From IMG/VR virus record IMGVR_UViG_3300020428_000001, positions 1 to 58,114 of that record: a stretch of 58,114 nt of DNA. One strand, given 5' to 3'. Position 1 is the first letter of the stretch; every line of letters starts with the position of its first letter. Both the position numbers and the translations under genes were made by a program. Below the pieces are notes generated by a model. The model was not told the origin of the DNA and searched no databases. It saw only the letters and a list, made by a program, of their open reading frames with translations. Origin of the DNA: a virus (taxonomy: Duplodnaviria; Caudoviricetes). Shown one piece after another: positions 14,898-43,757 of the stretch.

Positions 14898-15332
14898 ATG
14901 GATTTTTTAGTTAATTTTAGAGAGCAATTCATGCCTTGTATTCAAGCTATTGATGTTGCTAAAGAAGAAGCTGATAAAGCCGGTAAAGAAGATGCTAGTG
15001 AAGCTTATAAGAAAGCTTTAGTCATTGTTAAAGAAGCTATTCAAAAAGCTGAAAAGCATCAACAGTGGAAATTACAAGACCGTATTGTAAATATCATTAA
15101 AGACCATACTAATCATAATGATGTAGCTTATGACGCAATTAGAGAAATTCAAGATTTTACTCATGATAAATCTAATGATATAGAATCTGAAGTTAAATCT
15201 CAAATTGAAGATTATTTAAGAGATCAATTACATGTTGACGATGCTACTATTGATGCAATTCAAAATACAATAGAAGATAGTATACAAGAAGCAACTGAAG
15301 AAGAATTTCAAAATGAAGGTATGTGGTTATGA
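14898..15332 (+). CDS. Hypothetical acidic helical protein
   Basis: Start refined to MDFLVN (AAGGA RBS). Confidence 0.75.
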   Translation: MDFLVNFREQFMPCIQAIDVAKEEADKAGKEDASEAYKKALVIVKEAIQKAEKHQQWKLQDRIVNIIKDHTNHNDVAYDAIREIQDFTHDKSNDIESEVKSQIEDYLRDQLHVDDATIDAIQNTIEDSIQEATEEEFQNEGMWL

Positions 15333-15553
15333 GTATAAAATGGAATGATATATCAAGTCCACCTCATTATAAAAATGGTCCTATTGAATGTATTGATGGC
15401 ATTAAATCTGCCACTGGTAATCTCTTTGAAGGTTATTTAATTGGCAACGTGATAAAGTATTTATGGCGTTGTAATTACAAAGGTGATAAATTAAAAGACC
15501 TTAAGAAAGCTCAATGGTATCTTAATTACTTAATTGATTCACAAGAAAAATAA
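15329..15553 (+). CDS. DUF3310 family protein (T7 gp1.7-like nucleotide kinase domain)
   Basis: PPHYKNGPIECIDGI...GNVIKYLWR.NYKG...DLKKAQWYL. Confidence 0.88.
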   Translation: MSIKWNDISSPPHYKNGPIECIDGIKSATGNLFEGYLIGNVIKYLWRCNYKGDKLKDLKKAQWYLNYLIDSQEK

Positions 15554-16952: not shown

Positions 16953-17103
16953 TGATAAAATATTAGAGCTTTGGGATAAGTATTTAGTAAAAGATAAAAG
17001 AAGTTTTAGTGAATTCTTTTCTGAAGAATTTGGTATAACTTTAAATTCTGATATTACTTATCCACAGATTAAGATTTTAGTAAAAGCTTTAATAAAGTTA
17101 TAG
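16939..17103 (+). CDS. Hypothetical protein
   Basis: Start refined to MKCDNDKILELW; ends at the tRNA. Confidence 0.55.
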   Translation: MKCDNDKILELWDKYLVKDKRSFSEFFSEEFGITLNSDITYPQIKILVKALIKL

Positions 17104-17175
17104 GTGAATAGTGTAATGGCAACACGAGTGGTTCCAACCCACTTAATCTGGGTTCAAATCCTAGTTCACCTGCCA
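17102..17175 (+). tRNA. trnW: tRNA-Trp (CCA)
   Basis: Acceptor stem AGGTGAA/TTCACCT, D stem GTGT/ACAC, anticodon stem AGTGG/CCACT with loop TTCCAAC, GGTTCAAATCC T arm, G73 and encoded CCA. Confidence 0.93.
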
Positions 17176-17179
17176 AGAT

Positions 17180-17410
17180 AGGTGTGCTAGCGAATCCCTT
17201 GTGGTAGAATTAGATTCACACTAAAAAGGCTAGTATAACATAAAGGAGTGAATATCGGTCCAGTAATAGGCCTTCGTAGCGCCTCGAAAGAGGTGACAGG
17301 GGTGGTAAGACGCCTTAGGATGATACTGAAGTTGGCCCTTCAGCCGATATTCAGATCTCTTTATGTGAACCGTCTTCAGATAATTTTTTAATAACACCGA
17401 ACGGGGCACC
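17180..17410 (+). ncRNA. Candidate structured non-coding RNA downstream of the tRNA
   Basis: GC-rich gap with nested stems TGAATATCGG/CCGATATTCA, ACATAAAG/CTTTATGT, CGCCTC-GAAA-GAGGTG and TGCTAGC/GCTAGTA. Confidence 0.55.
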
Positions 17411-17420
17411 GTGGCAATTT

Positions 17421-17687
17421 ATGGAGAATTTTATGGGTATTATTGAATTCCCGATAAGGGAACGAATGTATAAGCGATGGAGCAATCTATCAGCTGAGCG
17501 TTTAACTAATAAATGGGAAGTAGATCCAAAACGTGAACCTGAGATTTTTAATGATATGTTATATACTATCACTAATGAATTTAAAGGTGATGCTGAAGAT
17601 TGGACTCAAGAAGAAATTATTGAACTGATTGATAGTTTCTTTAGAGTAGAAGAATTTATAATAATGAGGAGAGGGCCTAAGAAATGA
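17421..17687 (+). CDS. Hypothetical protein
   Basis: 88 aa ORF coupled to the next gene; start uncertain. Confidence 0.6.
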   Translation: MENFMGIIEFPIRERMYKRWSNLSAERLTNKWEVDPKREPEIFNDMLYTITNEFKGDAEDWTQEEIIELIDSFFRVEEFIIMRRGPKK

Positions 17688-18037
17688 GTGAAAATATTCC
17701 TTATAGAGAAATGATTAGGCAAGGATTTAGAAAAATGAGAGAAGAAAGTGAAAAAGAAAGTTACTTAGAACGATCAATAGAAATCTTAGAAGAATGTGGT
17801 AATTTAATTCGTAAGAAAGGTCAAGACTATCAAGGTGGATCAGTAAAAGATCCACAATACTATCCTCATGGATGGAAGTCCTTTGATACAATGCTTACTA
17901 CTAAGATACTAAGATTTCGTTCTGTTATGGATCAAGAAGGAAATGTTAATTTTGATTCAGCAGAAGATTGTTTAAGAGATTTAATTAATTACTCTGCAAG
18001 ATGCATTGTATGGTTAGAAAATGAAAGGAATAAATAA
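17684..18037 (+). CDS. Nucleotide-modification-associated domain 1 (Nmad1/DUF1599-like) protein
   Basis: KKGQDY, YYPHG, KILRFRSV and NFDSAEDCLRDLINYS motifs; next to DNA modification genes. Confidence 0.7.
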   Translation: MSENIPYREMIRQGFRKMREESEKESYLERSIEILEECGNLIRKKGQDYQGGSVKDPQYYPHGWKSFDTMLTTKILRFRSVMDQEGNVNFDSAEDCLRDLINYSARCIVWLENERNK

Positions 18038-18228
18038 TGACTGTTCATGGTAGTCCAAAAGATAGAGGTTCAGCAGATAGATATTATGGTCGTCCGTTTG
18101 AACCACATTGGTATCCGCAAGGAACTTATAATGGCAGAAAAATAGAAGAAGATGAAATGAATTCTGACCAAGTAGAAGAATATAAAGAAGGTTGGAATAA
18201 CGAAATTAATAGAAAGAATTGGGGTTAA
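18037..18228 (+). CDS. Conserved hypothetical phage protein
   Basis: HGSPKDRGSADRYYGR..PH motif. Confidence 0.75.
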   Translation: MTVHGSPKDRGSADRYYGRPFEPHWYPQGTYNGRKIEEDEMNSDQVEEYKEGWNNEINRKNWG

Positions 18229-18230
18229 TT

Positions 18231-19172
18231 ATGGGACTTCTTAAACCTATAATATTCACAAGAGGAAGATTAGAAAATCAAGTAACTCTTTCACAATTAC
18301 CGTCTTCATTACAAAGAATAGCATGTCTTATAGTTTATCCCGAGGAGTATGAAGAACATAAAAAGCTATATGGTAATATAACTAATGTAGTTAAGACACC
18401 TGAGGGTTGCCGAGGGATTGCTAAAAGACGTGAATGGGCTGCATTAAATGCTAATAAAAACCTAATTCAATGGCAATTAGACGATGATTTAACTTTTTGT
18501 AAAGCAAAAGATGAAGGTCAAGACGGTACATGGCCATTCTTAAAATTTGGTCCAATGGAAGATGATGATTGGAAAACTCTTGAAAAAGATATTGAAAGAG
18601 CTTGTGATATTGGATTTAAAGTTGGAGGGTTAGGTCAAAGAATTGCTCCAGCAGGAATTAGCGATTTTCCTGGTTCAGTAAATTCTAGAGTATATACTAA
18701 TACGTGGTTTGATTTTAGAACTATAAATGCAAAAGACTATGATTGGATAGGTAAAGAATGGAATGATGATGAGTTCTTACCTGAAGATTTTCATATTCAA
18801 TGTCAAATGGTAAAGTCTGGTATTCCAATTTTAAACTTAAATAAATTTGCTAGTTCTGGAAATAAGACTCAAGCAGCAGGAGGATGTGCTACTTATAGGT
18901 CTTTAAATAATCATAATAAAGGTATGAAGAAATTTGCAGAAGTATGGTCTGATTGTACCGTCTTAAGATGGAAAGATGGTTGGGAAAAAGGTACTCAAAA
19001 AGCTGCGTTAACTATACGACTTAGTAAGCTTTGGCCACAGACAAAAGAACTTTTAATAGGTATGGAACACCGTCTTAGATTAGATCTTGGTGGAAAGTCA
19101 AAACCTGAAGCAAAGAAACTTCAAGAAAAAGCTAATAACCTTAGAAAGGAAATGCAAGAAAATGCCGAATAG
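18231..19172 (+). CDS. GT-A fold glycosyltransferase, TET-associated (TAGT)/GREB1-like; putative DNA base glycosyltransferase
   Basis: IFTRGR, VYPEEYEEH, GIAKRREW, QLDDDL (DxD), EDFHIQ and TQAAGGC..YR motifs; coupled to the hydroxymethylase. Confidence 0.75.
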   Translation: MGLLKPIIFTRGRLENQVTLSQLPSSLQRIACLIVYPEEYEEHKKLYGNITNVVKTPEGCRGIAKRREWAALNANKNLIQWQLDDDLTFCKAKDEGQDGTWPFLKFGPMEDDDWKTLEKDIERACDIGFKVGGLGQRIAPAGISDFPGSVNSRVYTNTWFDFRTINAKDYDWIGKEWNDDEFLPEDFHIQCQMVKSGIPILNLNKFASSGNKTQAAGGCATYRSLNNHNKGMKKFAEVWSDCTVLRWKDGWEKGTQKAALTIRLSKLWPQTKELLIGMEHRLRLDLGGKSKPEAKKLQEKANNLRKEMQENAE

Positions 19173-19872
19173 AACTATTGATGAAATCAGAGATGAGTTT
19201 TGTTTAAAGTATCAAAATATGATGGTTGAACAAGATGGTAATATAGAAATATTAGGTGCTTCATTTGTTGCTAGTGAAGATAAATTATTCGGAGAACCTA
19301 ATAAGAAATATAGAATAGCAGAAGTAGATTGGTATGACAGTCAAGAAAGAAATATCAATAAACTGGGAGAGTTGTATGGTAAAATTCCTGTAATTTGGAA
19401 AGAACATGCAGCTAATACTAAAGGTGAAATTAATTCTAATTATGGATGGATGATTTATAATTGGGAAAATGGTAATCAATATGAGTTTTGCTTAAGAGAA
19501 TTAAAAGAAAATCCAAATTCTCGTAGAGCTATTATGATTTATCAGCATCCACATATGCATACAAGATATAGAAGAGAAGGTATGAATGATTTTTGTTGTA
19601 CCAACGCAGTAAGTTATTATATTAAAGATGGATCTCTTAATTGTGTAGTACAAATGAGATCTAATGATGCTATATTTGGTTATATGAATGATTATTACTG
19701 GCAGAATAGAGTTCAAGAGCGTTTAGCAATTGATTTAAATATTTCTAAAGGTAAAATGATTTGGCAAGTCCAAAGTTTACACATATATCCAAGACATATG
19801 TATTTAATAAAAGAATTTATTGAAGAAAGACATAAAAACCGTCTTAACGCAAATGACGATTATATTTTATAG
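19162..19872 (+). CDS. dCMP hydroxymethylase (T4 gp42-like thymidylate synthase homologue)
   Basis: IEILGASFVA, GEINSNYGW, NPNSRRAIMIY, DFCCTN (catalytic Cys), MRSNDAIFGYMND (dCMP-specifying Asp as in T4 GFRND) and SLHIY. Confidence 0.88.
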   Translation: MPNRTIDEIRDEFCLKYQNMMVEQDGNIEILGASFVASEDKLFGEPNKKYRIAEVDWYDSQERNINKLGELYGKIPVIWKEHAANTKGEINSNYGWMIYNWENGNQYEFCLRELKENPNSRRAIMIYQHPHMHTRYRREGMNDFCCTNAVSYYIKDGSLNCVVQMRSNDAIFGYMNDYYWQNRVQERLAIDLNISKGKMIWQVQSLHIYPRHMYLIKEFIEERHKNRLNANDDYIL

Positions 19873-19884
19873 AAAGGAAATAAA

Positions 19885-20838
19885 ATGGCTCATGAAGTAG
19901 AAACAATGGCTTATGCAGGGGAAGTACCATGGCACGGATTAGGTGTTCCTGTATCTAATGATTTAACTGTTTATCAAATGATGGATAAAGCTAATCTTAA
20001 TTGGAAAGTACATGAAGTTCCTAATTATGTTGATTGGGAAGGCCAAAAAGTAAATACTACTTTTAAATCTTTGATAAGAGAAACTGACGGTAGAATTCTT
20101 ACTACAGTTGGTAAAGACTGGAATCCAGTACAAAACGAAGAAGCTTTTAAATTCTTTGAAGAGTATGTTAATGTAGGTGATATGGAAATGCATACTGCTG
20201 GCTCATTAAAAGATGGTCAATATGTATGGGCATTAGCTAAAGTTAAAGATTCCTTTGAATTATTTAGTGGAGATAAAGTAGATTCGTATTTATTATTCTC
20301 TAATCCTCATGTATATGGAAAATCTATTGATATTAGATTTACACCGATTAGAGTTGTATGTAATAACACATTAACTTTATCTTTATCTGGTAAAAATAAT
20401 AAAGCTGTTAAAATTAGGCATAGAACTAAGTTTAATGCAGAGCAAGTTAAAGAAACTTTAGGTATTGCTACTGAAGAACTACAGAAATATAAAGAAGTAG
20501 CTCAATACTTAGGAAGTACACGAATAAAGGATGTAGAGACTTTAATACATTATTATAATGATGTTTATCCTAGAGATGAGAAGCATGGTACTACTCCATT
20601 AAAAGAAGAAACTCTTTCTAAACCTGCAAAAGTTGCTTTAAAGAATTTTGACACTCAACCTGGAGCTAAGTTCGCTGAAGGAAGTTGGTGGCAAGCATTT
20701 AATTCTGTAACTTACTCACAAGATCATGTGTATGGTAAAAATAAAGATAATAGACTATATAATTCATGGTTTGGTAGAGGACAAGTACTTAAGAAGAAAG
20801 CTTTAGATAAAGCTCTTGCATTTGCTGATGTAGCTTAA
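19885..20838 (+). CDS. DUF932/DUF945 family protein
   Basis: MAHEVETMAYAGEVPWHGLG, PVQNEEAF, TAGSLKDG and TPIRVVCNNTL motifs. Confidence 0.88.
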   Translation: MAHEVETMAYAGEVPWHGLGVPVSNDLTVYQMMDKANLNWKVHEVPNYVDWEGQKVNTTFKSLIRETDGRILTTVGKDWNPVQNEEAFKFFEEYVNVGDMEMHTAGSLKDGQYVWALAKVKDSFELFSGDKVDSYLLFSNPHVYGKSIDIRFTPIRVVCNNTLTLSLSGKNNKAVKIRHRTKFNAEQVKETLGIATEELQKYKEVAQYLGSTRIKDVETLIHYYNDVYPRDEKHGTTPLKEETLSKPAKVALKNFDTQPGAKFAEGSWWQAFNSVTYSQDHVYGKNKDNRLYNSWFGRGQVLKKKALDKALAFADVA

Positions 20839-20996
20839 TGGAAGGTTCTATTATACCTAATTGGTGGCAATCATGGTTACTGGTTGCCATCACTATTAAT
20901 ACATTAATAAACTTAATTGTATTCTTCAAAGGAAGAAAATTACATATAAAAGAATTGTTACATTTAAAACCTAAAAGGAAGAAAATAAATGACTAG
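20838..20996 (+). CDS. Small membrane protein (52 aa)
   Basis: TAATG coupling; WWQSWLLVAITINTLINLIVFF followed by a basic tail. Confidence 0.6.
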   Translation: MEGSIIPNWWQSWLLVAITINTLINLIVFFKGRKLHIKELLHLKPKRKKIND

Positions 20997-21423
20997 TGAA
21001 TGGTTAAAAGATATAAAAGATATGCATCAAAAATTTGGTGTAAACAAATGGGTTCAATCTGAACTTCAAAGTGATGTAGATTGGAGACGTTTAGATAAAT
21101 TTATTCAATTTAGAATGGATATGATAAAGGAGGAGTTGGATGAAACTAAAACGGCCATTAAGAAAGGCGATGAAGAAGGCGTTGTTGATGGACTTATTGA
21201 CTTATGTGTTTTTGCGATTGGTACGCTTGATATATTGGGACTTGATGTGGACAAGGCTTGGAGGACTGTACATTCAGCTAATATGGCCAAAGAACCCGGA
21301 ATCAAGGCTAGCAGGCCTAATCCGCTTGGCTTACCGGACATGATAAAGCCTGAAGGTTGGAAAGATCCTTCTCATAAAGATAATATAGGTAATATAAAAG
21401 ATTTTATAAGAAACGATAAGTGA
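20989..21423 (+). CDS. MazG/PRA-PH-like NTP pyrophosphohydrolase (candidate dCTPase)
   Basis: MIKEELDE, VDGLIDLCVFAIG, VHSANMAK and KPEGW motifs. Confidence 0.85.
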   Translation: MTSEWLKDIKDMHQKFGVNKWVQSELQSDVDWRRLDKFIQFRMDMIKEELDETKTAIKKGDEEGVVDGLIDLCVFAIGTLDILGLDVDKAWRTVHSANMAKEPGIKASRPNPLGLPDMIKPEGWKDPSHKDNIGNIKDFIRNDK

Positions 21424-21452
21424 ATGAGAACATTCACTATAAATAGATAAAG
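21419..21452 (+). promoter_or_regulatory. Putative hairpin promoter, class I (copy 4)
   Basis: AGTGAATG-AGAA-CATTCACT (8-bp stem) followed by AAATAGATAAAG, directly before the DNA polymerase RBS. Confidence 0.65.
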
Positions 21453-21464
21453 AAAGGAAATACT

Positions 21465-23312
21465 ATGCAACTAGTATTTGATATAGAAACTGACGGACTA
21501 TTAAATCAAATGACTAAATGTCATGTTTTAGTTTGTCAAGATCCAGTTAGTAAAAATATTTATAAGTTTGGTCCTAATGAGATTGATAAAGGCTTAGCAC
21601 TATTATCTAGTGCTACTGCCTTAATTGGTCATAACATTATTGGATTTGATTTAATGGCTCTTGATAAACTATATAATTGGAAACCGTCTTTAGATACTGC
21701 GATTATTGATACTTGGGTTATGTCTCAAGTTTTAAACTATCAAAGACCTCATAAACATGGTTTAGCAGGTTGGGGATCTCATCTTAAATATAAGAAGATA
21801 GATAACTCTAAATTTGACGAACAAGAATGGAAAATATATTCTCCAGAAATGTTAGAATACTGTGTTCAAGATGTTAAGCTAAATACTAAAGTTTATGAAG
21901 TATTACTTGCTGAATTAAATAAAGCTGTGTTAAATAATAAAATGATTAGAGATGGTTTACGTGTTGAACATGATGTGGCTCATTTTGAAAGTCAAGTAAG
22001 AAAGAAAGGTTGGATGTTTGATATAGATCAAGCTACTAAAAATCTTAAGACTATGAAGAAGCATATGAATAAGATTGAATCTATTATTGAACCAAAACTC
22101 GGAACTACAAAAGTCTTTATAGATAAAACTCCTAAGACTCCTAAGTATACTAAAGCTGGATATTATACTGCGACTACAGCTAGAATACTATCTGAATATT
22201 TAGATAAGAAAGTAATAGGTGAAGATGCCGTATCTGACAACCCTCCTATGCTGCCTGGTACAGAGTTTCAACGTTTTACAATAGAACCTATAACCTTAAG
22301 TAATATGGATCTAGTAAAAGAATGGTTACATACGATTGGCTGGAAACCAGATGATTGGAACGTTAAAAGAGATCCACATGGTGGTTGGATTAGAACTGGT
22401 CCTAAACTTACTTCAAGTTCTCTTGCTAAGTTAGGTAGAATAGGAAAATTAATTGATAGATATTATACAATTAAAAATCGTAAAGCAACTATTGAATCAT
22501 GGTTTGAGAGAATAGAAAGAGATGAGCATAATAACTGTAGACTTCATGGTCGAATGTGGACTGTTGGTACTCCTAGCTTTAGGTGTAGGCATGAAGTTAT
22601 CGTTAATTTACCAGCAGTGGATGCGCCTTATGGCCGTATGCTTAGGGAATTATTTATTTCTGAGCCCGGTTATAGAGTTGTTGGTGCGGATAGCGCTGGT
22701 AATCAGCTGCGTGGACTATGTCATTATGTGGGGGATAAGAATTACACCGAACTCGTCGTTAACGGAGATCAGCATTCGAGAAACGCTGCTGTTCTTAGTT
22801 GTACTAGGAGTCTTGCTAAATCTTTTCTTTATGCTATTCTCTTTGGGGCAGGTGATGCAAAGCTTGGTCAAACTCTTTATGGAGTCAGTAGTGTACCGAA
22901 AGGTAAAGATGCTAGAAGAAAATTTACAGCGAATTTACCAGGATTTGATTCACTAGTAAATAAATTAAAGAATATTTATAATCAGTATGGATGCATACCT
23001 GCTTTAGATGGTAGAAAGATATATGCAAGATCTGATTATCAAGTTTTAAATTATTTATTACAAACTGCTGAAGGTATTACATGTAAAGCAGCTGTAAGTT
23101 ATGCAATGAAAAAGATTAAAGAAGAAAATTTAGATGCCTATCCTGCAATATTCTATCATGATGAACAAGCATGGATTGTTAATGATAAAGATACTAAACG
23201 TGTTGGAGAAATCTTACAAGAATCTTTTCGTGAAGCTCCAAAATGGTTTGGTGTAGACTGTATGGATGGTGGTGATTATAAAATAGGAGACTCATATGCA
23301 GATGTTCATTAA
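21465..23312 (+). CDS. DNA polymerase family A (T7 gp5-like) with 3'-5' exonuclease
   Basis: FDIETDGL, GHNIIGFD, YCVQDV, GADSAGNQLR (motif A), RSLAKSFLYAILFG (motif B) and YHDE (motif C). Confidence 0.96.
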   Translation: MQLVFDIETDGLLNQMTKCHVLVCQDPVSKNIYKFGPNEIDKGLALLSSATALIGHNIIGFDLMALDKLYNWKPSLDTAIIDTWVMSQVLNYQRPHKHGLAGWGSHLKYKKIDNSKFDEQEWKIYSPEMLEYCVQDVKLNTKVYEVLLAELNKAVLNNKMIRDGLRVEHDVAHFESQVRKKGWMFDIDQATKNLKTMKKHMNKIESIIEPKLGTTKVFIDKTPKTPKYTKAGYYTATTARILSEYLDKKVIGEDAVSDNPPMLPGTEFQRFTIEPITLSNMDLVKEWLHTIGWKPDDWNVKRDPHGGWIRTGPKLTSSSLAKLGRIGKLIDRYYTIKNRKATIESWFERIERDEHNNCRLHGRMWTVGTPSFRCRHEVIVNLPAVDAPYGRMLRELFISEPGYRVVGADSAGNQLRGLCHYVGDKNYTELVVNGDQHSRNAAVLSCTRSLAKSFLYAILFGAGDAKLGQTLYGVSSVPKGKDARRKFTANLPGFDSLVNKLKNIYNQYGCIPALDGRKIYARSDYQVLNYLLQTAEGITCKAAVSYAMKKIKEENLDAYPAIFYHDEQAWIVNDKDTKRVGEILQESFREAPKWFGVDCMDGGDYKIGDSYADVH

Positions 23313-23436
23313 CTGGTATATAGATATATTATTAAAAATATCTAGTAAGTTTGGTAGAATAAGTTCTTACTTTTATATGAAGCATGTAAATGTTTTACAT
23401 AAAAAGCAGATAAAAGATGGAATAAGAGATCGATGA
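23296..23436 (+). CDS. Small hypothetical protein (46 aa)
   Basis: AGGAG RBS; ends in an ATGA overlap with the next gene. Confidence 0.55.
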   Translation: MQMFINWYIDILLKISSKFGRISSYFYMKHVNVLHKKQIKDGIRDR

Positions 23437-23849
23437 AAATAGGTTTTACAGCTAGTACATTTGATTTACTTCATGCTGGACACGTTCAAATGTTACGTGA
23501 AGCTAAAGAACAATGTGATTATTTAATATGTGGATTACAAATAGATCCAACAATTGATCGTAAAGATAAAAATTATCCTATACAAACGATTGTTGAGAGA
23601 TATACACAATTAAATAGTGTAAAATATATTGATGAAATTATTCCTTATTCTACTGAAAAAGATTTATGTGATATATTAAGTATGTATAATATAAATATAC
23701 GAATACTTGGTGAAGAATATAGAGAAAAAGAATTTACAGGTAGAGATATTTGTAAAGCAAGAAGTATAGATATTTATTTTAATAAACGCGATCATAGATT
23801 TAGTAGTACTGATCTTAGACTTCGTGTTATAAAAGGAAAGGAAAAATAA
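23433..23849 (+). CDS. Cytidylyltransferase (TagD/glycerol-3-phosphate CT-like)
   Basis: FDLLHAGH (HxGH), QTIVER and RDHRFSSTDLR motifs. Confidence 0.9.
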   Translation: MKIGFTASTFDLLHAGHVQMLREAKEQCDYLICGLQIDPTIDRKDKNYPIQTIVERYTQLNSVKYIDEIIPYSTEKDLCDILSMYNINIRILGEEYREKEFTGRDICKARSIDIYFNKRDHRFSSTDLRLRVIKGKEK

Positions 23850-24647
23850 ATGAAACTATTTATAGATGCTGACAGTATTTTGTTTAAAGCTGCGTGCACT
23901 CAAAGTTCTGTTAAAGAGACTAATAAAGTAGTTCATACAATAGTACAAGATACTATTGGTGATTGTTGGGCTGATGAAACTTATCTTGCTGTAAAAGGAA
24001 AAGGAAACTTTAGATATGATATATTTAAAGATTATAAAGCAGCAAGAAAAGATAAGCCTATGGAAGAAGATTTAAGGAACCGACTTAATGAAGCTTATAA
24101 ATATCTTATTGATAAGTATAAAGCAGTTCCAGCAGATGGAATGGAAGCTGACGATTTAGTTTCTATTTGGGCGTTTGAAGCAAGAAAAGCTGATGAAGAC
24201 TTTGTTATTGCTCATATTGATAAAGATATAAATCAAATTGCTGGTAACCATTATAATTATAATAAGAAGAATTATTATTTTATTAATGATGATGAAGCTG
24301 ATTTAAATTTCTGTATACAACTTTTAATCGGAGATAGTGGTGATGGCATACCTAAAATTCGTAAAGGATATGGTATAAAAACTGCTCAAACCGCCTTAAA
24401 AGATACAACTTATGATAATAGAATAGATCGTGTTGTAGACGAGTGGAAAAGACATTATGGAAATGGATGGGAAACTCAACTTAATATGGTTGGTAACTTA
24501 ATATATATGAAAAGAACTTGGGATATGGAGGAATGGAACTATGGAGATCGTTATTCCGGGAAAACCGATGTCAGCGAACCGAATGGAAGGGATAAGAGCG
24601 ATAAGAACGAAGACGGGAAAGAGCTTCACTCAAACTTATCCAACTAA
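23850..24647 (+). CDS. 5'-3' exonuclease (T7 gp6-like)
   Basis: IDADSI, NFRY..FKDYKAAR, EADDL, IDKDINQIAG and GDSGDGIP motifs. Confidence 0.92.
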   Translation: MKLFIDADSILFKAACTQSSVKETNKVVHTIVQDTIGDCWADETYLAVKGKGNFRYDIFKDYKAARKDKPMEEDLRNRLNEAYKYLIDKYKAVPADGMEADDLVSIWAFEARKADEDFVIAHIDKDINQIAGNHYNYNKKNYYFINDDEADLNFCIQLLIGDSGDGIPKIRKGYGIKTAQTALKDTTYDNRIDRVVDEWKRHYGNGWETQLNMVGNLIYMKRTWDMEEWNYGDRYSGKTDVSEPNGRDKSDKNEDGKELHSNLSN

Positions 24648-24918
24648 AGATTATAAAGAATTTCTCGAGAGATTTAAAGAAGCTACTAAAGATAAGACTT
24701 GGAGATTTGAAGAAAAGGCTAGATTAAAGATATATATTTGGCCTTTTTTCTCAAATAAAGCGTCTGATTTAGATAACGTCGCTAAACCTACTCTTGATGC
24801 TTTACAAAAAGTATTTAATTGGAATGATAAACATGCTTATGAACTTCATTTGATAAAGAACTTTGCAAAACGTGGAGAAGAGAAATTAGAAATTGAAATA
24901 GAAGAGCTTATAGATTAA
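24541..24918 (+). CDS. RusA-like Holliday junction resolvase
   Basis: P.SANR N-terminus, DLDNVAKPTLDALQ and WNDK motifs. Confidence 0.85.
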   Translation: MEIVIPGKPMSANRMEGIRAIRTKTGKSFTQTYPTKDYKEFLERFKEATKDKTWRFEEKARLKIYIWPFFSNKASDLDNVAKPTLDALQKVFNWNDKHAYELHLIKNFAKRGEEKLEIEIEELID

Positions 24919-24931
24919 GAAAGGAAATTAC

Positions 24932-26539
24932 ATGCAAAATAGTAAAAGATATTCATGTCCTGATTGTGGAAGTTCTGATGGAGTTATGATAGATCCTGAA
25001 GATGGACACACATTTTGCTTTGCTTGTGGAGTATATAACTCAAAATATAAAGGAAATAAGATGGATGAACCCATTACCGATACAGATAATAACTTCGAAT
25101 TACAACTCAACGATATTCATAACTATCCTAGTCTTGATATGCCTAGTAGGCGTATTTCTAAAAAGGTAGTAGAATTCTTTGGTGTAAAGACTCATCAATA
25201 CAACGATAAACCGGCTCATTTCTATCCTTATGATAATGATTGTTATAAAGTTAGAATATTACCAAAAGAATTTAGACTAATAGGAAAACCAAAGAAATTA
25301 TTTGGACAACGAGAATTTGGTTCTGGTGGTAAGATGTTAGTTATTACAGAAGGAGAACTTGATGCACTCAGCGTAGCTCAAGCGTCTATGGATACTAATA
25401 ATAGAATATGGCCTGTTGTATCTATTCCTTCAGCAAATCAATTACAAGTAGTTTTAGAAAATAGAAACTGGATTAGACAATTTGAGAAAGTAGTAATATG
25501 GATGGACGCAGACGAGGCCGGTCAAAAGGCCATTACGGAAATATCGAAAATTATTGGCTTCGACAAAGTAAGAATAGTAAATCTGAATGGGAAAGAAAAA
25601 GATGCGAGCGATGTATATATGACGAGTGGCGCTGCACAGGTTTCTTCGGTAATTTGGAATGCCAGTTCTTACAGTCCAGCTGGGATAGTCGTAGGAGAAA
25701 AGATTTGGGAGAGGTTTCAAGAAAGACAGAAAGTTCAATCAATTCCTTATCCAAAATGTTTAGATGGATTAAACGAAAAATTAAAAGGATTGAGATTTGG
25801 AGAAATTAGTTTATTTACTAGTGGAACTGGATCAGGTAAAAGTACTGTATTAAAAGAAATTATCCTTAATATATTAAATACTACTGATTCAAAAGTTGGT
25901 TTAATATCTTTAGAAGAAAGCGTTGGAGATACAGCTGAGAAATTTATTGGTATGCAAATCAATAAAAGAATTGGTGATGATGATGTACCTATTTCTCAAG
26001 ATTTATTAAGATCTGGATTTGAAAGTATATTTAGTGATGAAAGATTAATTCTTCTTGACCATCAGGGATCTGTAGGTGATAACAGTTTAATAGACAAGAT
26101 GGAATATATGGCTCTTATGGGTTGTAAATACCTTGTATTAGATCATATTACTATTGCTGTATCTGAAGGTAGTGAAGGATTATCTGGAAATGAAGCTATA
26201 GATAAAGTTATGTCTGACTTACTTAAAGTAGTAAAGAAGCATGATGTTTGGTTAGGTTTAGTAAGTCATTTACGTAAGTCTGGAAGTAAAGCTTTTGAAG
26301 AAGGTAATATGGCTTCAATAGATGATGTAAAAGGCAGTGGTAGTATCAAACAAATATCATTTGATATTATAGCTTTTTCTAGAAATCTTACAGCTCATCT
26401 TGAAGAAGAGCGAAATCAAATCAAATTAACTGTATTAAAATCAAGATTTACTGGTAAAACTGGACCAGCTGGTACAGCTATATACGATTCAGAAACTGGA
26501 AGATTAAAAGATGGGAGTACTGAATTTGGGATATTATAA
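24932..26539 (+). CDS. Primase-helicase (T7 gp4-like)
   Basis: CPDC..CFAC zinc domain, ITEGELDA and WMDADEAG TOPRIM, SGTGSGKS Walker A, LDHIT, SHLRK and KSRFTG. Confidence 0.96.
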   Translation: MQNSKRYSCPDCGSSDGVMIDPEDGHTFCFACGVYNSKYKGNKMDEPITDTDNNFELQLNDIHNYPSLDMPSRRISKKVVEFFGVKTHQYNDKPAHFYPYDNDCYKVRILPKEFRLIGKPKKLFGQREFGSGGKMLVITEGELDALSVAQASMDTNNRIWPVVSIPSANQLQVVLENRNWIRQFEKVVIWMDADEAGQKAITEISKIIGFDKVRIVNLNGKEKDASDVYMTSGAAQVSSVIWNASSYSPAGIVVGEKIWERFQERQKVQSIPYPKCLDGLNEKLKGLRFGEISLFTSGTGSGKSTVLKEIILNILNTTDSKVGLISLEESVGDTAEKFIGMQINKRIGDDDVPISQDLLRSGFESIFSDERLILLDHQGSVGDNSLIDKMEYMALMGCKYLVLDHITIAVSEGSEGLSGNEAIDKVMSDLLKVVKKHDVWLGLVSHLRKSGSKAFEEGNMASIDDVKGSGSIKQISFDIIAFSRNLTAHLEEERNQIKLTVLKSRFTGKTGPAGTAIYDSETGRLKDGSTEFGIL

Positions 26540-26975
26540 AAATAAGCAAATCAAAAATGATGAATTATATATGGGAATCGCAGAAGTAGTTGCTCTGCGA
26601 TCTCATGATGATAAACACCAAGTTGGAGCTGTTATAGCTGATGGTAATAAGATATTAAGTTATGGTTGGAATGGTACTCCACACGGTATGGATAATAATA
26701 CAAGATATAATAATGGAAAAACTAAATGGGAGGTAATACATGCGGAAGCAAATGCAATATGTAAATTGGCTTCATCAAACTCGTCGTCGAAGAATTCCAC
26801 TCTATATACGACTATATCACCGTGTATTGAATGTACTAAGCTTATTCTTCAATCACAAATAAATAGAGTTGTATATAAAGAAGTTTATAATGCAGATGTA
26901 AATGGTAAACGTGTACCTCAATTACAAGCTATAGAGTTTTTGAAATCTAATGGAGTTAAAGTTGAGAAATATTAA
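26511..26975 (+). CDS. dCMP deaminase
   Basis: VGAVI, GWNGTP, HAEANAI and SPCIEC zinc motifs. Confidence 0.92.
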   Translation: MGVLNLGYYKNKQIKNDELYMGIAEVVALRSHDDKHQVGAVIADGNKILSYGWNGTPHGMDNNTRYNNGKTKWEVIHAEANAICKLASSNSSSKNSTLYTTISPCIECTKLILQSQINRVVYKEVYNADVNGKRVPQLQAIEFLKSNGVKVEKY

Positions 26976-27423
26976 AGTAAGAGAAGGAACTGATGAAGTA
27001 ATAAAATATCCTGACGATATGTTTTGTGTTTATACTCATAGAGATCCAGAAACATTAGATGTAGTTTATGTAGGTAAAGGTACATTACATAGAGCGTTTC
27101 AAATAGTTAATAGAGGTTATGACCACCATCTATGGTTGTTAGACAAATTAAAAGAATTTGAAATACAAGAAATAGTAAATATAAAAGGTGGTAATATGAC
27201 TGAAGGTGAGGCTTTAGTTGTAGAAACTCATGAAATTAAATGCTGCTTAAGATCCGGATGTAACTTATATAATGTTACTCATAATCCGTATCGCAGAACA
27301 AGGAGAAATAATAATGCAAGAGATAATGGAATATCTGGAGCAAAAAATATTGAATGCGCCACAAAGGTGGGCAATAAAGTTAGTGAAAGAGAACGAATTA
27401 GAAACGAAGAAATTAGTTCTTGA
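26950..27423 (+). CDS. GIY-YIG family nuclease-like protein
   Basis: CVYTHRDP...VVYVGKG...RA, a conserved E and LYN; overlaps the RNAP start. Confidence 0.65.
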   Translation: MELKLRNIKVREGTDEVIKYPDDMFCVYTHRDPETLDVVYVGKGTLHRAFQIVNRGYDHHLWLLDKLKEFEIQEIVNIKGGNMTEGEALVVETHEIKCCLRSGCNLYNVTHNPYRRTRRNNNARDNGISGAKNIECATKVGNKVSERERIRNEEISS

Positions 27424-29677
27424 TGCGTTAACTATATTACAATATCATTTTAGAAAGACTTCTACGTCTGAGTCTGCAACATGTAAATTAACTGCAGCTT
27501 CTTGTGCTATAGGAAAGAATGTATTACTTCATAAAGGAAAAGAATTAGGATTTAGAGCTGATGTAACTATCGGTGATTTTGTTCTTGAAGGATTTTATGA
27601 ATGTGGATATATTAAGATAGTTAGAGCTCCAACAGAAGCTCAAATAGCATGGGAAAAGAATCCAATAGGTAAAAGACCTTTTAGTAGAGCTCCATATATG
27701 ATTGAAACCTCAAAACGATGGAAAGAAATAGGAAGTTTACCTGATGTAGTAGTAAATGAGCTTATTCAAAATACTGCCTTTAAAAAGATTAAGAAGGTTC
27801 ATAGTCTTTATCAAGATAACGGATACCCAGTAATAAAGCATTGGGGCTTTGATCGTGATAAAGAATTTAAAGAACTTTTAGATGAACCTTTTATAAAAGC
27901 AATTAATAAGTTACAGAAAACTGCATGGAAGATTGATACAGAAATATTAGAAGCTGTAGAAAATAATAAAGATAAGTTTGTAAAAGAAACTTTAGAAGTT
28001 CTTGATAGCAGAAAGCAAAAATATAATTACTGTATTTTTGGTAATAATAAAGAGTTAGAAGGTAAAGAACTATATTGGAATAAGCATATCTTTAGACCTG
28101 ATTTAGGTAATAAATCTTTAGAAAAGAAATATTATGGAGAACTAAGAAGGCTTACTAATAAACTTAAGAATAAAGTTAATAAGAAACCGTTAGAGAGAAT
28201 GCAAAAGAAATATGATGAAGCTGCAACTCATTGGAATGCTAAATTAGTTTTACTTAAAAATAGAAGTAAGTTTGATGCGTATAATATGACACTTCAAAAG
28301 GCAAAAGCTTTATCAAATAAAATATTCTTTCAATATGTAGATGCTGATTATCGTGGTAGATTATATTATAGAGAGTCTTATTTAAATTATCAAGGAAAAG
28401 ATATAGAAAGAGGTTTATTAAAGTTTGCTGAACCTAAAGAAATGACTGAAGAAGGTTTATATAATTTATCTATATATACTGCATGTTGTTTCAATCAATC
28501 TTATAGTATTGATTCTATACCTAGTTGGTGTGAAAACGATTATGTATCTTACTTAGATGAGCAAGGTCTTACTGATATATCTATTGATAAAATGAATATT
28601 GATGATAGAGTAAGATGGGTTTTAAATAATCAAGACTTTATAATAAATACTTGGAAGAACCGTACTATACATGAAAACGCTGAAAAACCTGTTGGATTTT
28701 TAGCTTGTTGTAAAGAATGGTGTGCATTCTGGGACACCAAGTCAGAAGATGGTGTATATACTACCAACTTGCCAATCCCTATTGACGGTTCTAATAACGG
28801 TTGGCAACACTTATCTGCTATATCTAAAGACGAGCAGGCAGGAGAATTAGTAGGTTTAGTTCCAACTAAAATACCTAAAGACTTTTATGTTGAAACTGCT
28901 AAAGCTTTAAAGTCTCGTATGCCTGAATGGTTTAAGTCTAGAGTAATACCTATGAAGCATATACGTAAAGGTATATCTAAAAGAGGTTCTATGACTAGAG
29001 CTTATAGTGCAGGCCATTTAGCTATAGCTTTAAATATGTATGCAGATTGTTATGCTGAAGGTTATCATAGTAAGTATAATATAACTATGTCAGATTGTAA
29101 TGACTTATCTTTTAATCTTATAAGAGCTATAGATGAAGTTTGTCCTGGCCCTTTAGAGACTATGAGTTATTTACAAAAGTTAGCTAATCATATTATTGCA
29201 GACTTAAATGAGCCAGTAATTAAATGGATAACGCCATCTGGTTTTCCAGTTACGTATGAAAATTATGTTATGGAAGATATAAAATGGAAATCTTGGATAT
29301 CTGATATGAGAATTGAGCATGTTGGTAATGAACCAAGATTAATATATGGTAAGAAAATACCAAGTCCAGGTGGGTTTGCTTCAGGAATAAGTCCTAATTT
29401 TATTCATAGTATGGATGCTGCTCATATGGCTATTATTGTAGCTAATTGGGATGGAGAATTTGCAGCTATACATGATTCATTCTCTACTCATGCAAAAGAT
29501 GTAGGAGATTTACTAGACTTAACTAAAGAAGTTTTTATAGCAATGTATAATCATAAAGATTATTATAAGTGTATTGCTGAGATGCTTTTAGATAAGCCTG
29601 AGGACTTCAAATATAATTATAAGTTAGGTAAATTGCAAATAGAAGAAATTGCTAATAGCGATTACTTCTTTGCATAG
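27314..29677 (+). CDS. Single-subunit T7-like RNA polymerase (RNAP-2, 787 aa)
   Basis: DYRGRLY, PIDGSNNGWQH (motif A), KRGSMTRAY (motif B), PNFIHSMDA and IHDSF (motif C); start refined to MQEIME (AGGAG RBS). Confidence 0.95.
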   Translation: MQEIMEYLEQKILNAPQRWAIKLVKENELETKKLVLDALTILQYHFRKTSTSESATCKLTAASCAIGKNVLLHKGKELGFRADVTIGDFVLEGFYECGYIKIVRAPTEAQIAWEKNPIGKRPFSRAPYMIETSKRWKEIGSLPDVVVNELIQNTAFKKIKKVHSLYQDNGYPVIKHWGFDRDKEFKELLDEPFIKAINKLQKTAWKIDTEILEAVENNKDKFVKETLEVLDSRKQKYNYCIFGNNKELEGKELYWNKHIFRPDLGNKSLEKKYYGELRRLTNKLKNKVNKKPLERMQKKYDEAATHWNAKLVLLKNRSKFDAYNMTLQKAKALSNKIFFQYVDADYRGRLYYRESYLNYQGKDIERGLLKFAEPKEMTEEGLYNLSIYTACCFNQSYSIDSIPSWCENDYVSYLDEQGLTDISIDKMNIDDRVRWVLNNQDFIINTWKNRTIHENAEKPVGFLACCKEWCAFWDTKSEDGVYTTNLPIPIDGSNNGWQHLSAISKDEQAGELVGLVPTKIPKDFYVETAKALKSRMPEWFKSRVIPMKHIRKGISKRGSMTRAYSAGHLAIALNMYADCYAEGYHSKYNITMSDCNDLSFNLIRAIDEVCPGPLETMSYLQKLANHIIADLNEPVIKWITPSGFPVTYENYVMEDIKWKSWISDMRIEHVGNEPRLIYGKKIPSPGGFASGISPNFIHSMDAAHMAIIVANWDGEFAAIHDSFSTHAKDVGDLLDLTKEVFIAMYNHKDYYKCIAEMLLDKPEDFKYNYKLGKLQIEEIANSDYFFA

Positions 29678-29839: not shown

Positions 29840-29893
29840 AAAAAAAAAAGGGGTACCTTAGCGTAATGCTTTGGTACCCCTATTTTTTTTTTT
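29840..29893. terminator. Bidirectional intrinsic terminator between the converging arms
   Basis: A10, then the GGGGTACC...GGTACCCC stem, then a T-rich tract. Confidence 0.9.
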
Positions 29894-32800
29894 AACCAAT
29901 ATCTATTTGTAAGATCTTAGAGTCAGCTTTTTTCTGTAATGCTATTAATTCGTCTTTAGCTTTACGTACTTGATTTATAGTTTTCTGGTTTCTTACATTT
30001 AAATTTAATGCTTGCATAATTCTATCAAACACTGCTAACATCTCATTACCAGTCATAGAAGTAGTTACTTCTGGATTATTAAATCTACTTCCCATTATAG
30101 ACTTAACCATAGCAGCAGCTCTCTTTTTCTTTTCCCATTCAAACTTTCCTATTGGAGTTCCTTTAGGTCTTTGTTCAAATTCCATAGTATCATACATTAG
30201 AAATTGTAAGTTCTTATAAGGTGGGTTCCTTTCAGGATCCATAGGTGCTTTAGGATTAACACGTTCTGGGTCTAACATCCAACCAAATCCTCTAAAATCA
30301 GTATCCATTTCAACACTAACTTCTGAGTTACCTAATTCTTTTAATTGAGTTCTAAATTTGTCTATAGTTTTTGGCGCCCAATCTCCCATGATCCCATCTA
30401 CATAAGAAAACTCTTTAATAACATTCCACCAGTTATTATTAGCATGCTCTCGTACTCTTCTAGCACTCGCCAGGTCTGTCTTTACAGCATCCATGATAGG
30501 TAACATGTAATCTTTCTTTAATTGTTTCCACGAACTTCCTGTAAACATTGAATTCATCCATGCGCCATCCACTCCTTGTATAACGGCGGGAATTACTCGT
30601 CCTCTTCCCCATCCTCCAGGAGTTTCTTCTCCTTGGGAGTTAACTCTTATAGCAGAACCAGCTGGTTTAGATTCGTATAAAGGAACTGCTCCAACTTTTC
30701 TACCACTAGGTAATGTAATACTTAAATTAGCTTTATCTTTAACAATAGATTGTTTAGCACCAATATAAGTATCATAACCAATAGCGTTTTTCATAGTCAT
30801 AATATCATTAGATAATAAAGCAACGACATTATTAGCTCTTAGTAGTTGGCCTACTTGAACTATTCCCGGATGAAGTTCAGTATCGATAGCATCTGCAAGA
30901 ATGTCATGAAGAAAACTTACAGTAACGTCTTCTTTACTTTGCATTGGACCGCCTTTCTTTACTAAGAACTTAGCTACTTCAGGCTTATCTAAAATTGCTC
31001 TAATCTTTTGAGCTTGAGGACCTGTAAAGATAGTATCTTTAATAGCACCTTTTAAGTTCTTTAAAAGCTGACCATAACTTAATGTCATAGGTGGTTTCTT
31101 AAGAAAATTATCTCTATCTTTTATAGCTAACTCTAATATCTCATATAAATATGGAGAAAGAGTCTCATCATTAGTAAAATTTTGAGCATACTTTTGACCT
31201 TCTGAAAGCATCATATATGCCATTCCATCTCTAATGTCTCCAGCCTGCATATCAACTTCAGTTTCATTACCATTATATAATTCAGTTAAAGTAAAATCAT
31301 CTAAGTTTTTAACAGCATCTCCTTTTCTTAGTACCCCTCCTCTATAAGCAGCTCTAATAGAACCTAATAACATTAAGTTAGTTAAAGGTCCATGAGTTTT
31401 ACCATCAATCTCTACTCCTAAATTAGAATAAAATGAAGTATTATTATCAAAAGCTTGAGCATATCTAAATAACTCATTAGTAGCTTCTATTAATTGAAGT
31501 CCTTCTAATCCTTCTGATTGAGCCTTTTCTAAAAGAGAAGAATTAACATTTAGCTTAGGCATATTCTGTAATTCAGGCGGAATGTTAATAAACTCAGTTC
31601 CATTTTGATTTACATCTAATTTTATTTGCTTCATCAAATTTGTATATTGAGTATCTTGTTCCGGAGTTAGAAGTGATTCGTTTATAGATCTACCTGCCTT
31701 GATGAGCGCACCAAAAAGAGCACCATGGCCGGGAGCATTCCATTCTGCGTCAAACGCTTTTACTCTTTCGTCTGGAAGAAGTTTAGAAGCGCCTTTAATA
31801 AACAATGCAGCCATCATTTCTTTGAACATAAGTTCAGTATCATTATTACTTTTTGGTTTAACTTCACTAGGCTTAAGACCACCAGTAATATATCTCATCC
31901 ATGGCTGTAGTTGTGGATTAAAATCATTAGTAACATGCATTCTACTTTGCAATTCTTGAACTGCATAATCAAGATGCTTAGACTTATTACTTTCAAGAGC
32001 TGTTTGATTTAGATAATCTAAAAACCTAGTTATTTGTTTTTCCATTTCATAACTAGGATTATAATCAGTATTTGGATCTTCTAATCTTTTCTTAGCAAGC
32101 TCTCCTCTAAAAGATATAAACTTATCCATTCCAATTTTAAATAAGTTTCCTACTTTAGGTAATTCATTTCCTCTTTTAATTCCACTTAACGCTTCCATAG
32201 CTAATTGATAAACTATTTTACGTCTTAATGGATCTACTTGATGAGCTACAGAATTAGCATTTTCTTTTGCTTCTTCTACTTTTCTCATACGTCTATTAAC
32301 AACAGCAGTAGTTTTCTCTTTTCTTATAAGTCTTGATTCTCCTTCTTGACCAAGTCTTCTTATCACAGGTCTTGGAGCGTTAGCTGCTGGTTTCTTTGGT
32401 TTTGCAAAAACTTCAGGTGAGGATTCTGCGGCCGCTTTTATAGTCTTTGCCCCAACTGGAGTTAAACTATATATAATAGTAGAACCACTAGGACTCTCAT
32501 TTCTTTCATACATCATTGGATTAGCAGCATGATACATTTCTTTAGCTACTGTTCCTATATATTCAAATTGATCTTGACCAACTCCACTTTCAGAAAACTC
32601 GTCTGAAGGACGACCTTCCATTCTATTTTGTTCTCTTTTCCATGATCTAAAAATCTCTCTTCCTAATAAAGCATTTCCAGCTCCTCTACTTAGACCTCCT
32701 TCTTCATCTACTTGTACTTCTGGTCTGTCTTGTAATGCAGATAACGGATCATTAGCGTCAAACTGAACTTCTTGTTCTGAACCTATTTGAGTATTATAAA

Positions 32801-43593: not shown

Positions 43594-43757
43594 TTTTTAT
43601 CTATCCTTACTTTTAAATCGGCAAGGTCTACAGCATCTCTTATATCTTGTAATAACTTAAGATTTTGTTCTCTAAGTAAATTAACTTCTTCAACTAATTT
43701 AAATAAAGTTAAATTAAGAGTTGCATTTTCAGTAATAGGAGGATTATTAATAGCCAT
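43590..43757 (-). CDS. Small hypothetical protein (55 aa)
   Basis: GGAGG RBS, TAATG and ATGA couplings; MAINNPPITENATLNLTLFKL... Confidence 0.65.
   Translation of the reverse strand: MAINNPPITENATLNLTLFKLVEEVNLLREQNLKLLQDIRDAVDLADLKVRIDKK

Follow-up and report, generated by a model that had tools for sequence, protein, structure and literature searches.

A putative pre-replicative cytosine-hypermodification cassette in a marine podovirus of the CRP-7 type

Genes of the locus and the two central enzymes

The window analysed here, 58,114 bp in length, is a whole IMG/VR virus record (IMGVR_UViG_3300020428_000001) with direct terminal repeats and a CheckV completeness of 100%. Its nearest cultured phage is the Roseobacter podovirus CRP-7 (MK613349.1; 58,106 bp). 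Between positions 17684 and 26975, the window carries a group of genes which, judging from their sequences, probably directs the hypermodification of cytosine before replication. Two of them are central to this proposal: the gene of a T4-type dCMP hydroxymethylase (HMase) and that of a putative DNA glycosyltransferase (GT) of the TAGT family. The features of the group are the following.

17684..18037, plus strand: small helical protein resembling Nmad1 (DUF1599, PF07659); phrog_1485, E 2.9e-12; DUF1599, E 0.0019
18231..19172, plus strand: putative TAGT-family GT-A DNA glycosyltransferase, the sole glycosyltransferase found; PF20691, E 1.1e-13
19162..19872, plus strand: T4 gp42-type dCMP hydroxymethylase, that is, a synthase of 5-hydroxymethyl-dCMP (5hmdCMP); phmmer against PDB 1B49/1B5E, E 4.4e-60
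20989..21423, plus strand: MazG-like all-alpha NTP pyrophosphatase, candidate dCTP/dUTP-clearing enzyme; PRA-PH, E 2.5e-10
21465..23312, plus strand: family A DNA polymerase (PolA); tblastn, 37% identity to Pelagibacter phage Kolga and 35% to CRP-7
23433..23849, plus strand: cytidylyltransferase-like (TagD / RfaE domain II-like) accessory gene in the replication block; PF01467, E 3.3e-13
26511..26975, plus strand: dCMP deaminase (dCD); PF00383, E 3.8e-24; phrog_174, E 8.9e-50

An original prediction made from the same DNA described the Nmad1-like, GT-A and thymidylate synthase (TS)-fold genes as a coupled block, with a MazG-like pyrophosphatase and a dCMP deaminase nearby. All of these genes are indeed present. 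The Nmad1-like and GT genes are, however, not directly coupled: they are separated by an open reading frame (ORF) of 63 aa (18037-18228), which none of the 12 relatives described below was found to have. As for the GT and HMase genes, the true start of the latter is the ATG at 19162 and the stop codon of the former is the TAG at 19170-19172, giving an overlap of 11 nt.

The protein encoded by the HMase gene has the TS fold (PF00303, E 1.1e-19). In a phmmer search of the PDB, the T4 enzyme is retrieved at E 4.4e-60, as compared with 2e-11 for the next TS-fold chains, 2e-8 for the CMP hydroxymethylase MilA and about 1e-6 for E. coli TS. Identity reaches 46% to T4 gp42 over nearly the full length, versus 22% to RB69 gp48. 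NCBIfam returns thymidylate synthase models only, every score being far below cut-off. Using E. coli ThyA numbering, the catalytic Cys146 as well as Asp143, Asp169 and Asp177 are all present. The corresponding motifs are GMNDFCCTNA and QMRSNDAIFGYMND in the window, GMSDFMCTNT and NMRSNDVVFGFRND in T4 gp42, and ETLEYPCTDS and HMRSQNCAVVMQLD in RB69 gp48. Alignment of the first window motif to that of T4 positions Cys146 (E. coli C146 / T4 C148), and Asp143 stands three residues N-terminal of it, as does T4 Asp145. Asp177, the last residue of GYMND (QMRSNDAIFGYMNDYYWQ), aligns with T4 Asp179, which bears out the earlier claim that the gene follows T4 gp42 down to this residue. Asp169 belongs to a segment that reads MRSND in the window, in T4 and in 4/4 aligned relatives, and MRSQN in RB69 gp48. 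Each of the three Asp residues is invariant in 29/29 aligned HMase homologues. The enzyme thus resembles T4 gp42 (PDB 1B49, 1B5D, 1B5E, 6A9A/B, 6L18) in its TS fold and in the conservation of the catalytic Cys and of the residues corresponding to D145, D171 and D179.

These positions bear on the chemistry of the enzyme. According to a 2026 study (PMC13326640), the enzymes of RB69, DLP3 and RL38J1 and several metavirome (IMG/VR) 'dCMP hydroxymethylase-like' enzymes, long annotated as dCMP hydroxymethylases, make 5-hydroxy-dCMP with flavin and O2. The rules given there are that N177D selects dCMP rather than dUMP (section 24), that an acidic residue at L143, by which water is admitted, goes with a non-methyl product, hydration being favored over reduction, and that D169N marks the 5-hydroxy enzymes, Asn being found in all tested 5-hydroxycytosine (5hoC) synthases (section 28). 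One may then consider that the TS homologue of the window is a flavin-dependent 5-hydroxy-dCMP synthase of the RB69/DLP3 type and that the GT sugars 5hoC directly, through an ether link. N177D and the acidic residue at L143 are indeed common to those enzymes and to that of the window, and in the arabosyl-5-hydroxycytosine pathway described for RB69/DLP3 a dCMP-acting TS homologue is likewise found beside DNA glycosyltransferases. However, the defining D169N is absent from the window enzyme, which has the T4-like MRSND segment; Asp169 is kept in all of the best 80 IMG/VR homologues, and the identities favor T4 gp42 over RB69 gp48. Moreover, the RB69/DLP3 glycosyltransferases are described as resembling GT-B enzymes, and, according to the reports, these phages possess a kinase and a gene cluster for sugar-nucleotide synthesis, neither of which the window has. 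Since Asp169 is kept, RB69-type 5-hydroxycytosine chemistry is excluded by the published rule, and we regard this alternative as very unlikely. For the same reason, the core of the original prediction, glycosylated 5-hydroxymethylcytosine (5hmC), survives the 5hoC test.

It could also be imagined that most of the cassette is silent and that its TS homologue acts as an ordinary thymidylate synthase, or a dUMP hydroxymethylase, fed by the dCMP deaminase, in which case the DNA would be canonical or thymine-modified. In line with this possibility, six-frame searches of the window gave a single TS-fold gene, that of the gp42 type, and no ThyX, in agreement with the earlier statement that neither ThyA nor ThyX was recognised. 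The genome is AT-rich and encodes a dCMP deaminase, and the only NCBIfam models retrieved are those of thymidylate synthases, all far under their cut-offs. Against it, Asp at N177 selects dCMP and Asp at L143 goes with hydration, not reduction, under the rules cited above; both residues are invariant in the 29 aligned homologues, and E. coli-type TS structures match at about 1e-6 versus 4e-60 for T4 gp42. Such a scenario is hardly credible. By every available sequence criterion, the HMase is a T4-type 5hmdCMP synthase, and very probably it makes 5hmdCMP.

The GT gene product matches the TAGT family (PF20691) with 52 bits (cut-off 27.5) over profile positions 5-205 of 205. A six-frame search of the window with this profile gave 52.7 bits (E 1.4e-15), and phrog_842 is matched at E 1.8e-26. 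In the subfamily alignment, hereafter called A1 (11 sequences), R67, D84-D85-D86 and E185-D186-F187 are invariant (11/11). In a wider set of 86 family members, D85 and D186 never vary, and conservation of R67, D84 and D86 is 90% or higher. The AlphaFold2 (AF2) model derived from the 86-sequence alignment (pLDDT 95.7) matches TAGTs among the BFVD viral models (E 1e-21 to 1e-18, TMq 0.69-0.72), including the Klebsiella phage PKO111 'beta-glucosyl-HMC-alpha-glucosyl-transferase' (E 7.9e-19, TMq 0.72) and the phiRSL1 TAGT (E 2.3e-18). In the PDB, it matches GT-A / nucleotide-diphospho-sugar folds, namely RmlT, GalNAc-T2 and TarP, and also RmlA. The family is large: 1,063 representatives were retrieved at E<=0.001, of which 294 remain at E<=1e-10. 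Using tblastn, homologues with 25-29% identity were found in 648 phage records, mostly those of Escherichia, Klebsiella and Shigella phages as judged from the first word of the organism name. Among the matches listed, a dCMP hydroxymethylase or a thymidylate synthase is often annotated in the neighbourhood, and in an Acinetobacter phage the gene order is HMase-TAGT-beta-GT.

Two known systems provide a framework for this enzyme. In 2026 papers, the beta-glucosyl-HMC-alpha-glucosyltransferase of T2/T6 is presented as a PF20691 TAGT that sits next to gene 42 and acts on alpha-glucosyl-hmC, to which it attaches a second glucose; in 288/753 phage genomes, TAGT is reported to be solitary, with an undefined function. 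The original contrast between the GT-B enzymes of T4 and GT-A enzymes of the TAGT type must be amended on this point, since T-even phages are not restricted to GT-B enzymes. The window GT shares with the T2/T6 TAGT the Pfam and PHROG families, the GT-A fold, the DDD motif and the location next to a hydroxymethylase gene. It differs from it by the reversed gene order, the GT preceding the HMase in the window, by its 25-29% identity, and by about 40 extra C-terminal residues, a trait of the window subfamily, which are modelled as two helices. It is also solitary, whereas the substrate of the T2/T6 TAGT is made by an alpha- or beta-GT. In the window, there was no six-frame match to the alpha-GT family PF11440 (Pfam model only) or to the beta-GT family PF09198, but the control for PF09198 also gave none; phmmer with the T4 beta-GT returned 0 matches at E<=10 among 409 window frames.

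The second system is that of the metavirome GT-A enzymes of Pyle et al. (10.1101/2023.12.21.572611), in which the GT-A fold, the R...DDD...EDY/F motif and the ThyS and dCMP-deaminase neighbourhoods are also found. Phage enzymes with this motif are reported there to glycosylate 5hmC in DNA directly. About 19,990 GT-A contigs are described as split between 5mYOX and ThyS neighbourhoods, dCMP deaminase being associated with the latter, and about 95% of all GT-containing contigs as coming from IMG/VR. The enzymes tested in that study were, however, fed post-replicatively by a methyltransferase plus TET, the ThyS-linked ones being only catalogued. Searches of the window for the TET/JBP family and for a C5-methyltransferase gave no match, so that no other 5hmC route is seen in it.

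Conservation in environmental relatives

Twelve IMG/VR loci with a GT 67-71% identical to that of the window were found with the alignment A1 as query; the single GT protein, used as query for such loci, gave no relative. Six of the 12 (L002-L007) are near-identical samplings of one phage. The genes of these loci are 38-81% identical to those of the window (57-81% from the Nmad1-like gene onward), and the order Nmad1-GT-HMase...MazG-PolA...dCD is kept. The Nmad1-like gene is present in 12/12 and the HMase gene in 10/12, the other two loci ending inside the GT gene or at most 274 bp from it; in all ten relatives that extend past the GT (10/10), the two genes are adjacent. The MazG-like gene is found in 9/12, that is, in 9/9 of those reaching its position, since the other three end earlier, and the dCD gene in 5/5 of those extending that far. 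Between the HMase and MazG-like genes, the window has a DUF932 / TIGR03299 'phage/plasmid-like protein' gene (19885-20838) that is specific to it (0/12 relatives); the relatives have at this place a Pyr_excise-like ORF instead (pyrimidine dimer DNA glycosylase family, E 2.1e-5; L004:11896-12399).

A broader view was obtained by scanning IMG/VR with an HMase alignment. At least 562 stretches were confirmed, of which the best 80 loci were kept, and neighbours were counted within +/-6 kb of the HMase. Many of these loci are interrelated and the counts are descriptive, with no test of co-evolution. Asp169 and Asp177 are kept in 80/80; position 143 is Asp in 59 and Leu in 3, and was unparsed by the pattern used in 18. 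The Nmad1-like gene lies beside the HMase gene in 65 of the 80 loci (L010, L012, L020-L097), always on the same strand and with a median gap of 131 bp. These 65 include T4-type gp43/UvsX loci and, in 3 of the 15 loci without an Nmad1-like gene, the HMase is at the contig start. A MazG-like gene is found in 54/80 and dCD in 43/80. TAGT is present in 19/80, distributed as 5/10 of the PolA-type loci, 11/41 of those with T4-type gp43 or UvsX and 3/29 of the unclassified ones. Both the Nmad1-like and the MazG-like gene are missing from the three coliphage-like loci with a T4 beta-GT, in contrast to the window, where both are neighbours of the HMase.

One PolA-type relative, G001 (55,997 bp), is complete (CheckV 100%). 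Its Nmad1 and HMase genes are adjacent and MazG is present; TAGT was not found anywhere in this genome. Between its HMase and MazG genes lies an S-adenosylmethionine (SAM)-methyltransferase-like ORF (Methyltransf_23, E 5.5e-10; L025:7451-8290), which may correspond to a different tailoring step on hmC. We read these comparisons as pointing to a conserved nucleotide-level core made of Nmad1, HMase, MazG and often dCD, to which the glycosyltransferase would be added as an exchangeable tailoring enzyme.

The Nmad1-like protein scores 18.9 bits against DUF1599, under the Pfam cut-off of 25. It also matches phrog_18404 'hydrolase' (E 1.9e-10), and its best clusters in a protein atlas carry PF07659 (score 0.96). 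The core of the protein, about 90 residues long, has 39 invariant columns in 26 subfamily members, and 13 columns are invariant across 44 sequences, T4-like-associated ones included. The AF2 model shows four helices with moderate confidence (pLDDT 78). Foldseek with this model gave no PDB match at E<=0.001 (best E 1.2). Among the weak matches, many are entries for MazG/PRA-PH/DCTPP1 pyrophosphatases, which is no more than a hint. Comparison of the Nmad1 alignment with the MazG-like protein of the window using hhalign gave a probability of 0.9%, and a phmmer search of the PDB with Nmad1 had no match under E 0.1. One part of the phrog_18404 profile matches the MazG-like protein and another part the Nmad1-like protein, which suggests that fused Nmad1-MazG forms exist. 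The predicted complex of two HMase and one Nmad1-like chains scored 0.00, a value that counts neither for nor against an interaction. Because of its linkage to the HMase, Nmad1 is the best candidate for an unrecognised component of the pathway.

The assignments of the two other core enzymes are as follows. The MazG-like protein scores 41.1 bits against PRA-PH (cut-off 21.3) and matches phrog_671 at E 8.2e-24. Its nearest solved relative is DR2231 (E 3.4e-6), and no similarity to T4 gp56 was found. It is a candidate for the clearing of dCTP/dUTP. The translation of the dCD gene shows the HAE and PCxxC motifs; the deaminase would supply dUMP to the host thymidylate synthase and lower the dCMP pool.

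Proposed pathway and its implications

From these data, the following pathway can be proposed. The MazG-like pyrophosphatase, perhaps with the Nmad1-like protein, would return dCTP to dCMP. The gp42 homologue would then convert dCMP, with methylene-tetrahydrofolate, to 5hmdCMP, which host kinases or an unrecognised phage kinase would bring to 5hmdCTP, and the family A polymerase would incorporate 5hmdCTP in place of dC. After replication, the 5-hydroxymethyl groups of the DNA would be glycosylated directly by TAGT, with a nucleoside diphosphate sugar (NDP-sugar) as donor and without prior action of an alpha- or beta-GT. In parallel, deamination of dCMP by the dCMP deaminase would provide the host thymidylate synthase with dUMP, as befits a genome whose G+C content is about 33%. 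Glycosyl-5hmC DNA is the most likely product, so that the DNA would probably be sugar-coated on cytosine. Sugar-coated cytosine is a known phage strategy against restriction, and the benefit here would likely be protection from host restriction and related nucleases. We give this full pathway, considered as a pre-replicative cytosine-hypermodification cassette in a CRP-7-type marine podovirus, a probability of about 0.6.

Several observations weigh against this proposal. T4 depends on gp1 for the phosphorylation of 5hmdCMP, and the window HMase has, compared with that of T4, no gp1 kinase, gp56 dCTPase or GT-B partner. For the dNMP kinase, phmmer with T4 gp1 and RB69 p045 against the 409 window frames gave 0 matches at E<=10; PF02223 has no match in the window, where no Walker-A kinase candidate was found either. 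In the work on 5-hydroxy enzymes, the UV-visible product is reported to have required co-expression of a kinase (PMC13326640). The original prediction had pointed to a 'DUF3310 kinase-like' gene. The DUF3310 protein (E 3.5e-20) is encoded at 15323-15553, outside the cassette. It has 76 aa and no Walker A, no library names it a kinase, and its gene also occurs in CRP-7, which lacks the pathway, so that this assignment has to be abandoned. The search for a T4 gp56-type dCTPase, carried out by phmmer on the same frames, also gave 0 matches at E<=10. For this reason, and because the substrate of the MazG-like protein cannot be read from its sequence, full replacement of C is not assured. Finally, the window GT is only 25-29% identical to the T-even TAGTs, the only characterised one of which is described as acting on alpha-glucosyl-hmC and not on bare hmC (2026 papers), and G001 has the HMase core without TAGT, which indicates that glycosylation is not obligatory in the lineage.

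Most of these points can be accommodated by another model, in which the DNA contains bare or partial 5hmC and the TAGT homologue either depends on a first sugar for whose addition this phage has no enzyme or acts on something other than DNA. The substrate of the T2/T6 enzyme, the lack of a primary alpha- or beta-GT in the window, the composition of G001 and the failure to find a kinase or a gp56-type dCTPase all fit such a model, as do the PDB fold matches of the GT, which are general GT-A and nucleotidyltransferase enzymes with non-DNA acceptors. On the other hand, direct addition of sugars to 5hmC in DNA is reported for phage GT-A enzymes that share the R...DDD...EDY/F motif (10.1101/2023.12.21.572611), solitary TAGTs are described as common in phages (288/753), viral TAGTs are the best structural matches of the GT, and its overlap with the HMase start is kept in every relative reaching the site. 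We therefore hold the bare-5hmC model to be rather unlikely, though more probable than the two alternatives discussed with the HMase. Glycosylated 5hmC, made with a TAGT-type GT-A enzyme and replicated by a family A polymerase, thus stands as the reasonable best reading already put forward in the original prediction, once its kinase and its plural RNA polymerases (see below) are removed.

A more general scheme can tentatively be drawn, given that the Nmad1-HMase linkage extends from T4-like myoviruses to PolA podoviruses. In most environmental hmC phages, the working core might consist of Nmad1 and a DR2231-like MazG acting with the HMase, instead of the gp42/gp56/gp1 trio. Nmad1 would be required, either to clear pools or to channel nucleotides. 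Tailoring would be lineage-specific, with TAGT here and a SAM-methyltransferase-like enzyme in G001, and the solitary TAGT would be a first-sugar transferase acting on 5hmC, possibly with a donor other than glucose. This extension is speculative.

Published work already describes the association of GT-A enzymes with ThyS homologues: hundreds of T-even phages have TAGT as a neighbour of gene 42, and mining of IMG/VR has yielded GT-A/ThyS clusters. The present case therefore extends known biology and is not new in kind. What is new is the host lineage of the pathway, no paper having been found on an hmC pathway in CRP-7-type phages, pelagiphages or other marine podoviruses. Also new are the linkage of Nmad1 to the HMase (65/80, versus 19/80 for TAGT) and the existence of a complete relative without TAGT. 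If the proposal is correct, pre-replicative hypermodification of cytosine in the manner of T4 reaches beyond the large T4-like myoviruses, into a small, abundant group of marine podoviruses. In these phages, the family A polymerase and the single-subunit RNA polymerase (RNAP) would then have to cope with a bulky modified base. Such genomes would resist many restriction enzymes and some library preparations, and may therefore be under-counted or mis-handled in viromics. The polymerase, the RNAP and the solitary TAGT would be candidate reagents for handling or labelling 5hmC DNA. In addition, the comparative result offers a concrete, testable role for Nmad1, a domain of unknown function that follows the HMase, the GT being optional.

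Phage backbone and other genes of the window

The setting of the HMase gene differs from that of T4 gp42, its carrier being not a T4-like myovirus but a podovirus of 58 kb that has a family A polymerase and a T7-like RNAP. The G+C content of the window is about 0.30-0.38 per 2-kb window. The replication and nucleotide-metabolism genes are grouped on the plus strand, between about 13 and 29.8 kb. The remainder is on the minus strand and includes a lysozyme gene and SU10-type genes for capsid, portal and adaptor proteins. Identities between CRP-7 and the window are 54% for the major capsid protein, 50% for the primase-helicase, 35% for PolA and 33% for the RNAP. The gene order PolA-exo-primase/helicase-RNAP, followed by large converging ORFs, is common to both. 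CRP-7 is reported to have a short tail as seen by electron microscopy (CRP-7 paper). Given the CRP-7-like backbone and the short tail of CRP-7, it is a fair inference to call the window phage a podovirus. The modification genes set the two phages apart, as no match to the GT, HMase, Nmad1-like, MazG-like or dCD proteins was obtained at E<=1e-3 in the first 30 kb of CRP-7, which form its replication half, and the text of the CRP-7 paper is without the terms 'hydroxymethyl', 'glycosyltransferase' or 'deaminase'. A megablast search with positions 17400-27500 against phage records gave no match.

Where the original prediction spoke of several T7-like RNAPs, a single PF00940 match was found across the six frames of the window. 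The longest frame of this RNAP (27272-29677) is overlapped by 152 nt by an ORF of 157 aa (26950-27423) that follows the deaminase gene, is about 70% identical in relatives and has no family match. Because of this overlap, the RNAP start is probably further downstream than that of the longest frame. In the 12.6-30 kb region, a sigma-70 promoter scan gave 84 sites versus 89.3 expected from shuffled sequence and a terminator scan 3 sites versus 5.2, with no excess in either case.

The cytidylyltransferase-like gene (23433-23849) matches phrog_7878 at E 2.5e-34. Its PDB matches are ethanolamine-phosphate and glycerol-3-phosphate cytidylyltransferases, and it falls under both NCBIfam equivalog cut-offs. 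In one published cluster, a phage cytidylyltransferase is reported to be needed for heptosyl-5hmC, and the gene was considered as a supplier of the sugar donor. This was set aside, since it is present in 0/12 of the GT-locus relatives and widespread in phages, and CDP-alcohol enzymes are as similar to it as RfaE domain II. It occurs in 137 phage records, with 74% identity to genes of Vibrio phages of about 191 kb and 51% to those of Synechococcus phage and roseophage CRP-6. Its link to the pathway is doubtful, and it looks like a mobile accessory gene.

Other features of the window may be mentioned. A single tRNA-Trp (CCA) gene at 17102-17175 lies directly upstream of the modification block; a tRNA-Arg, not a tRNA-Trp, is reported for CRP-7 (CRP-7 paper). 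An Hsp20 gene is found at 5390-5809. Among the structural genes, on the minus strand, are a ribonucleotide reductase (47331-49109; barrel domain, E 1.5e-108, with a weak match to a B12-type insertion) and a GTA-type holin with three transmembrane segments (49162-49557). Three minus-strand ORFs of 1,184-1,310 aa (29892-33560, 33560-37492 and 43757-47311) have no Pfam match; they are laid out as gp33-gp35 of CRP-7 and presumably encode internal or ejection virion proteins. Also on the minus strand, the 49824-57381 region contains about ten ORFs of 160-260 aa each, none with a Pfam match. For several of these, similarity is to the C-terminal parts of PHROGs of tail fibres (phrog_6942 twice, phrog_18673), a result suggestive of a cassette of receptor-binding modules.

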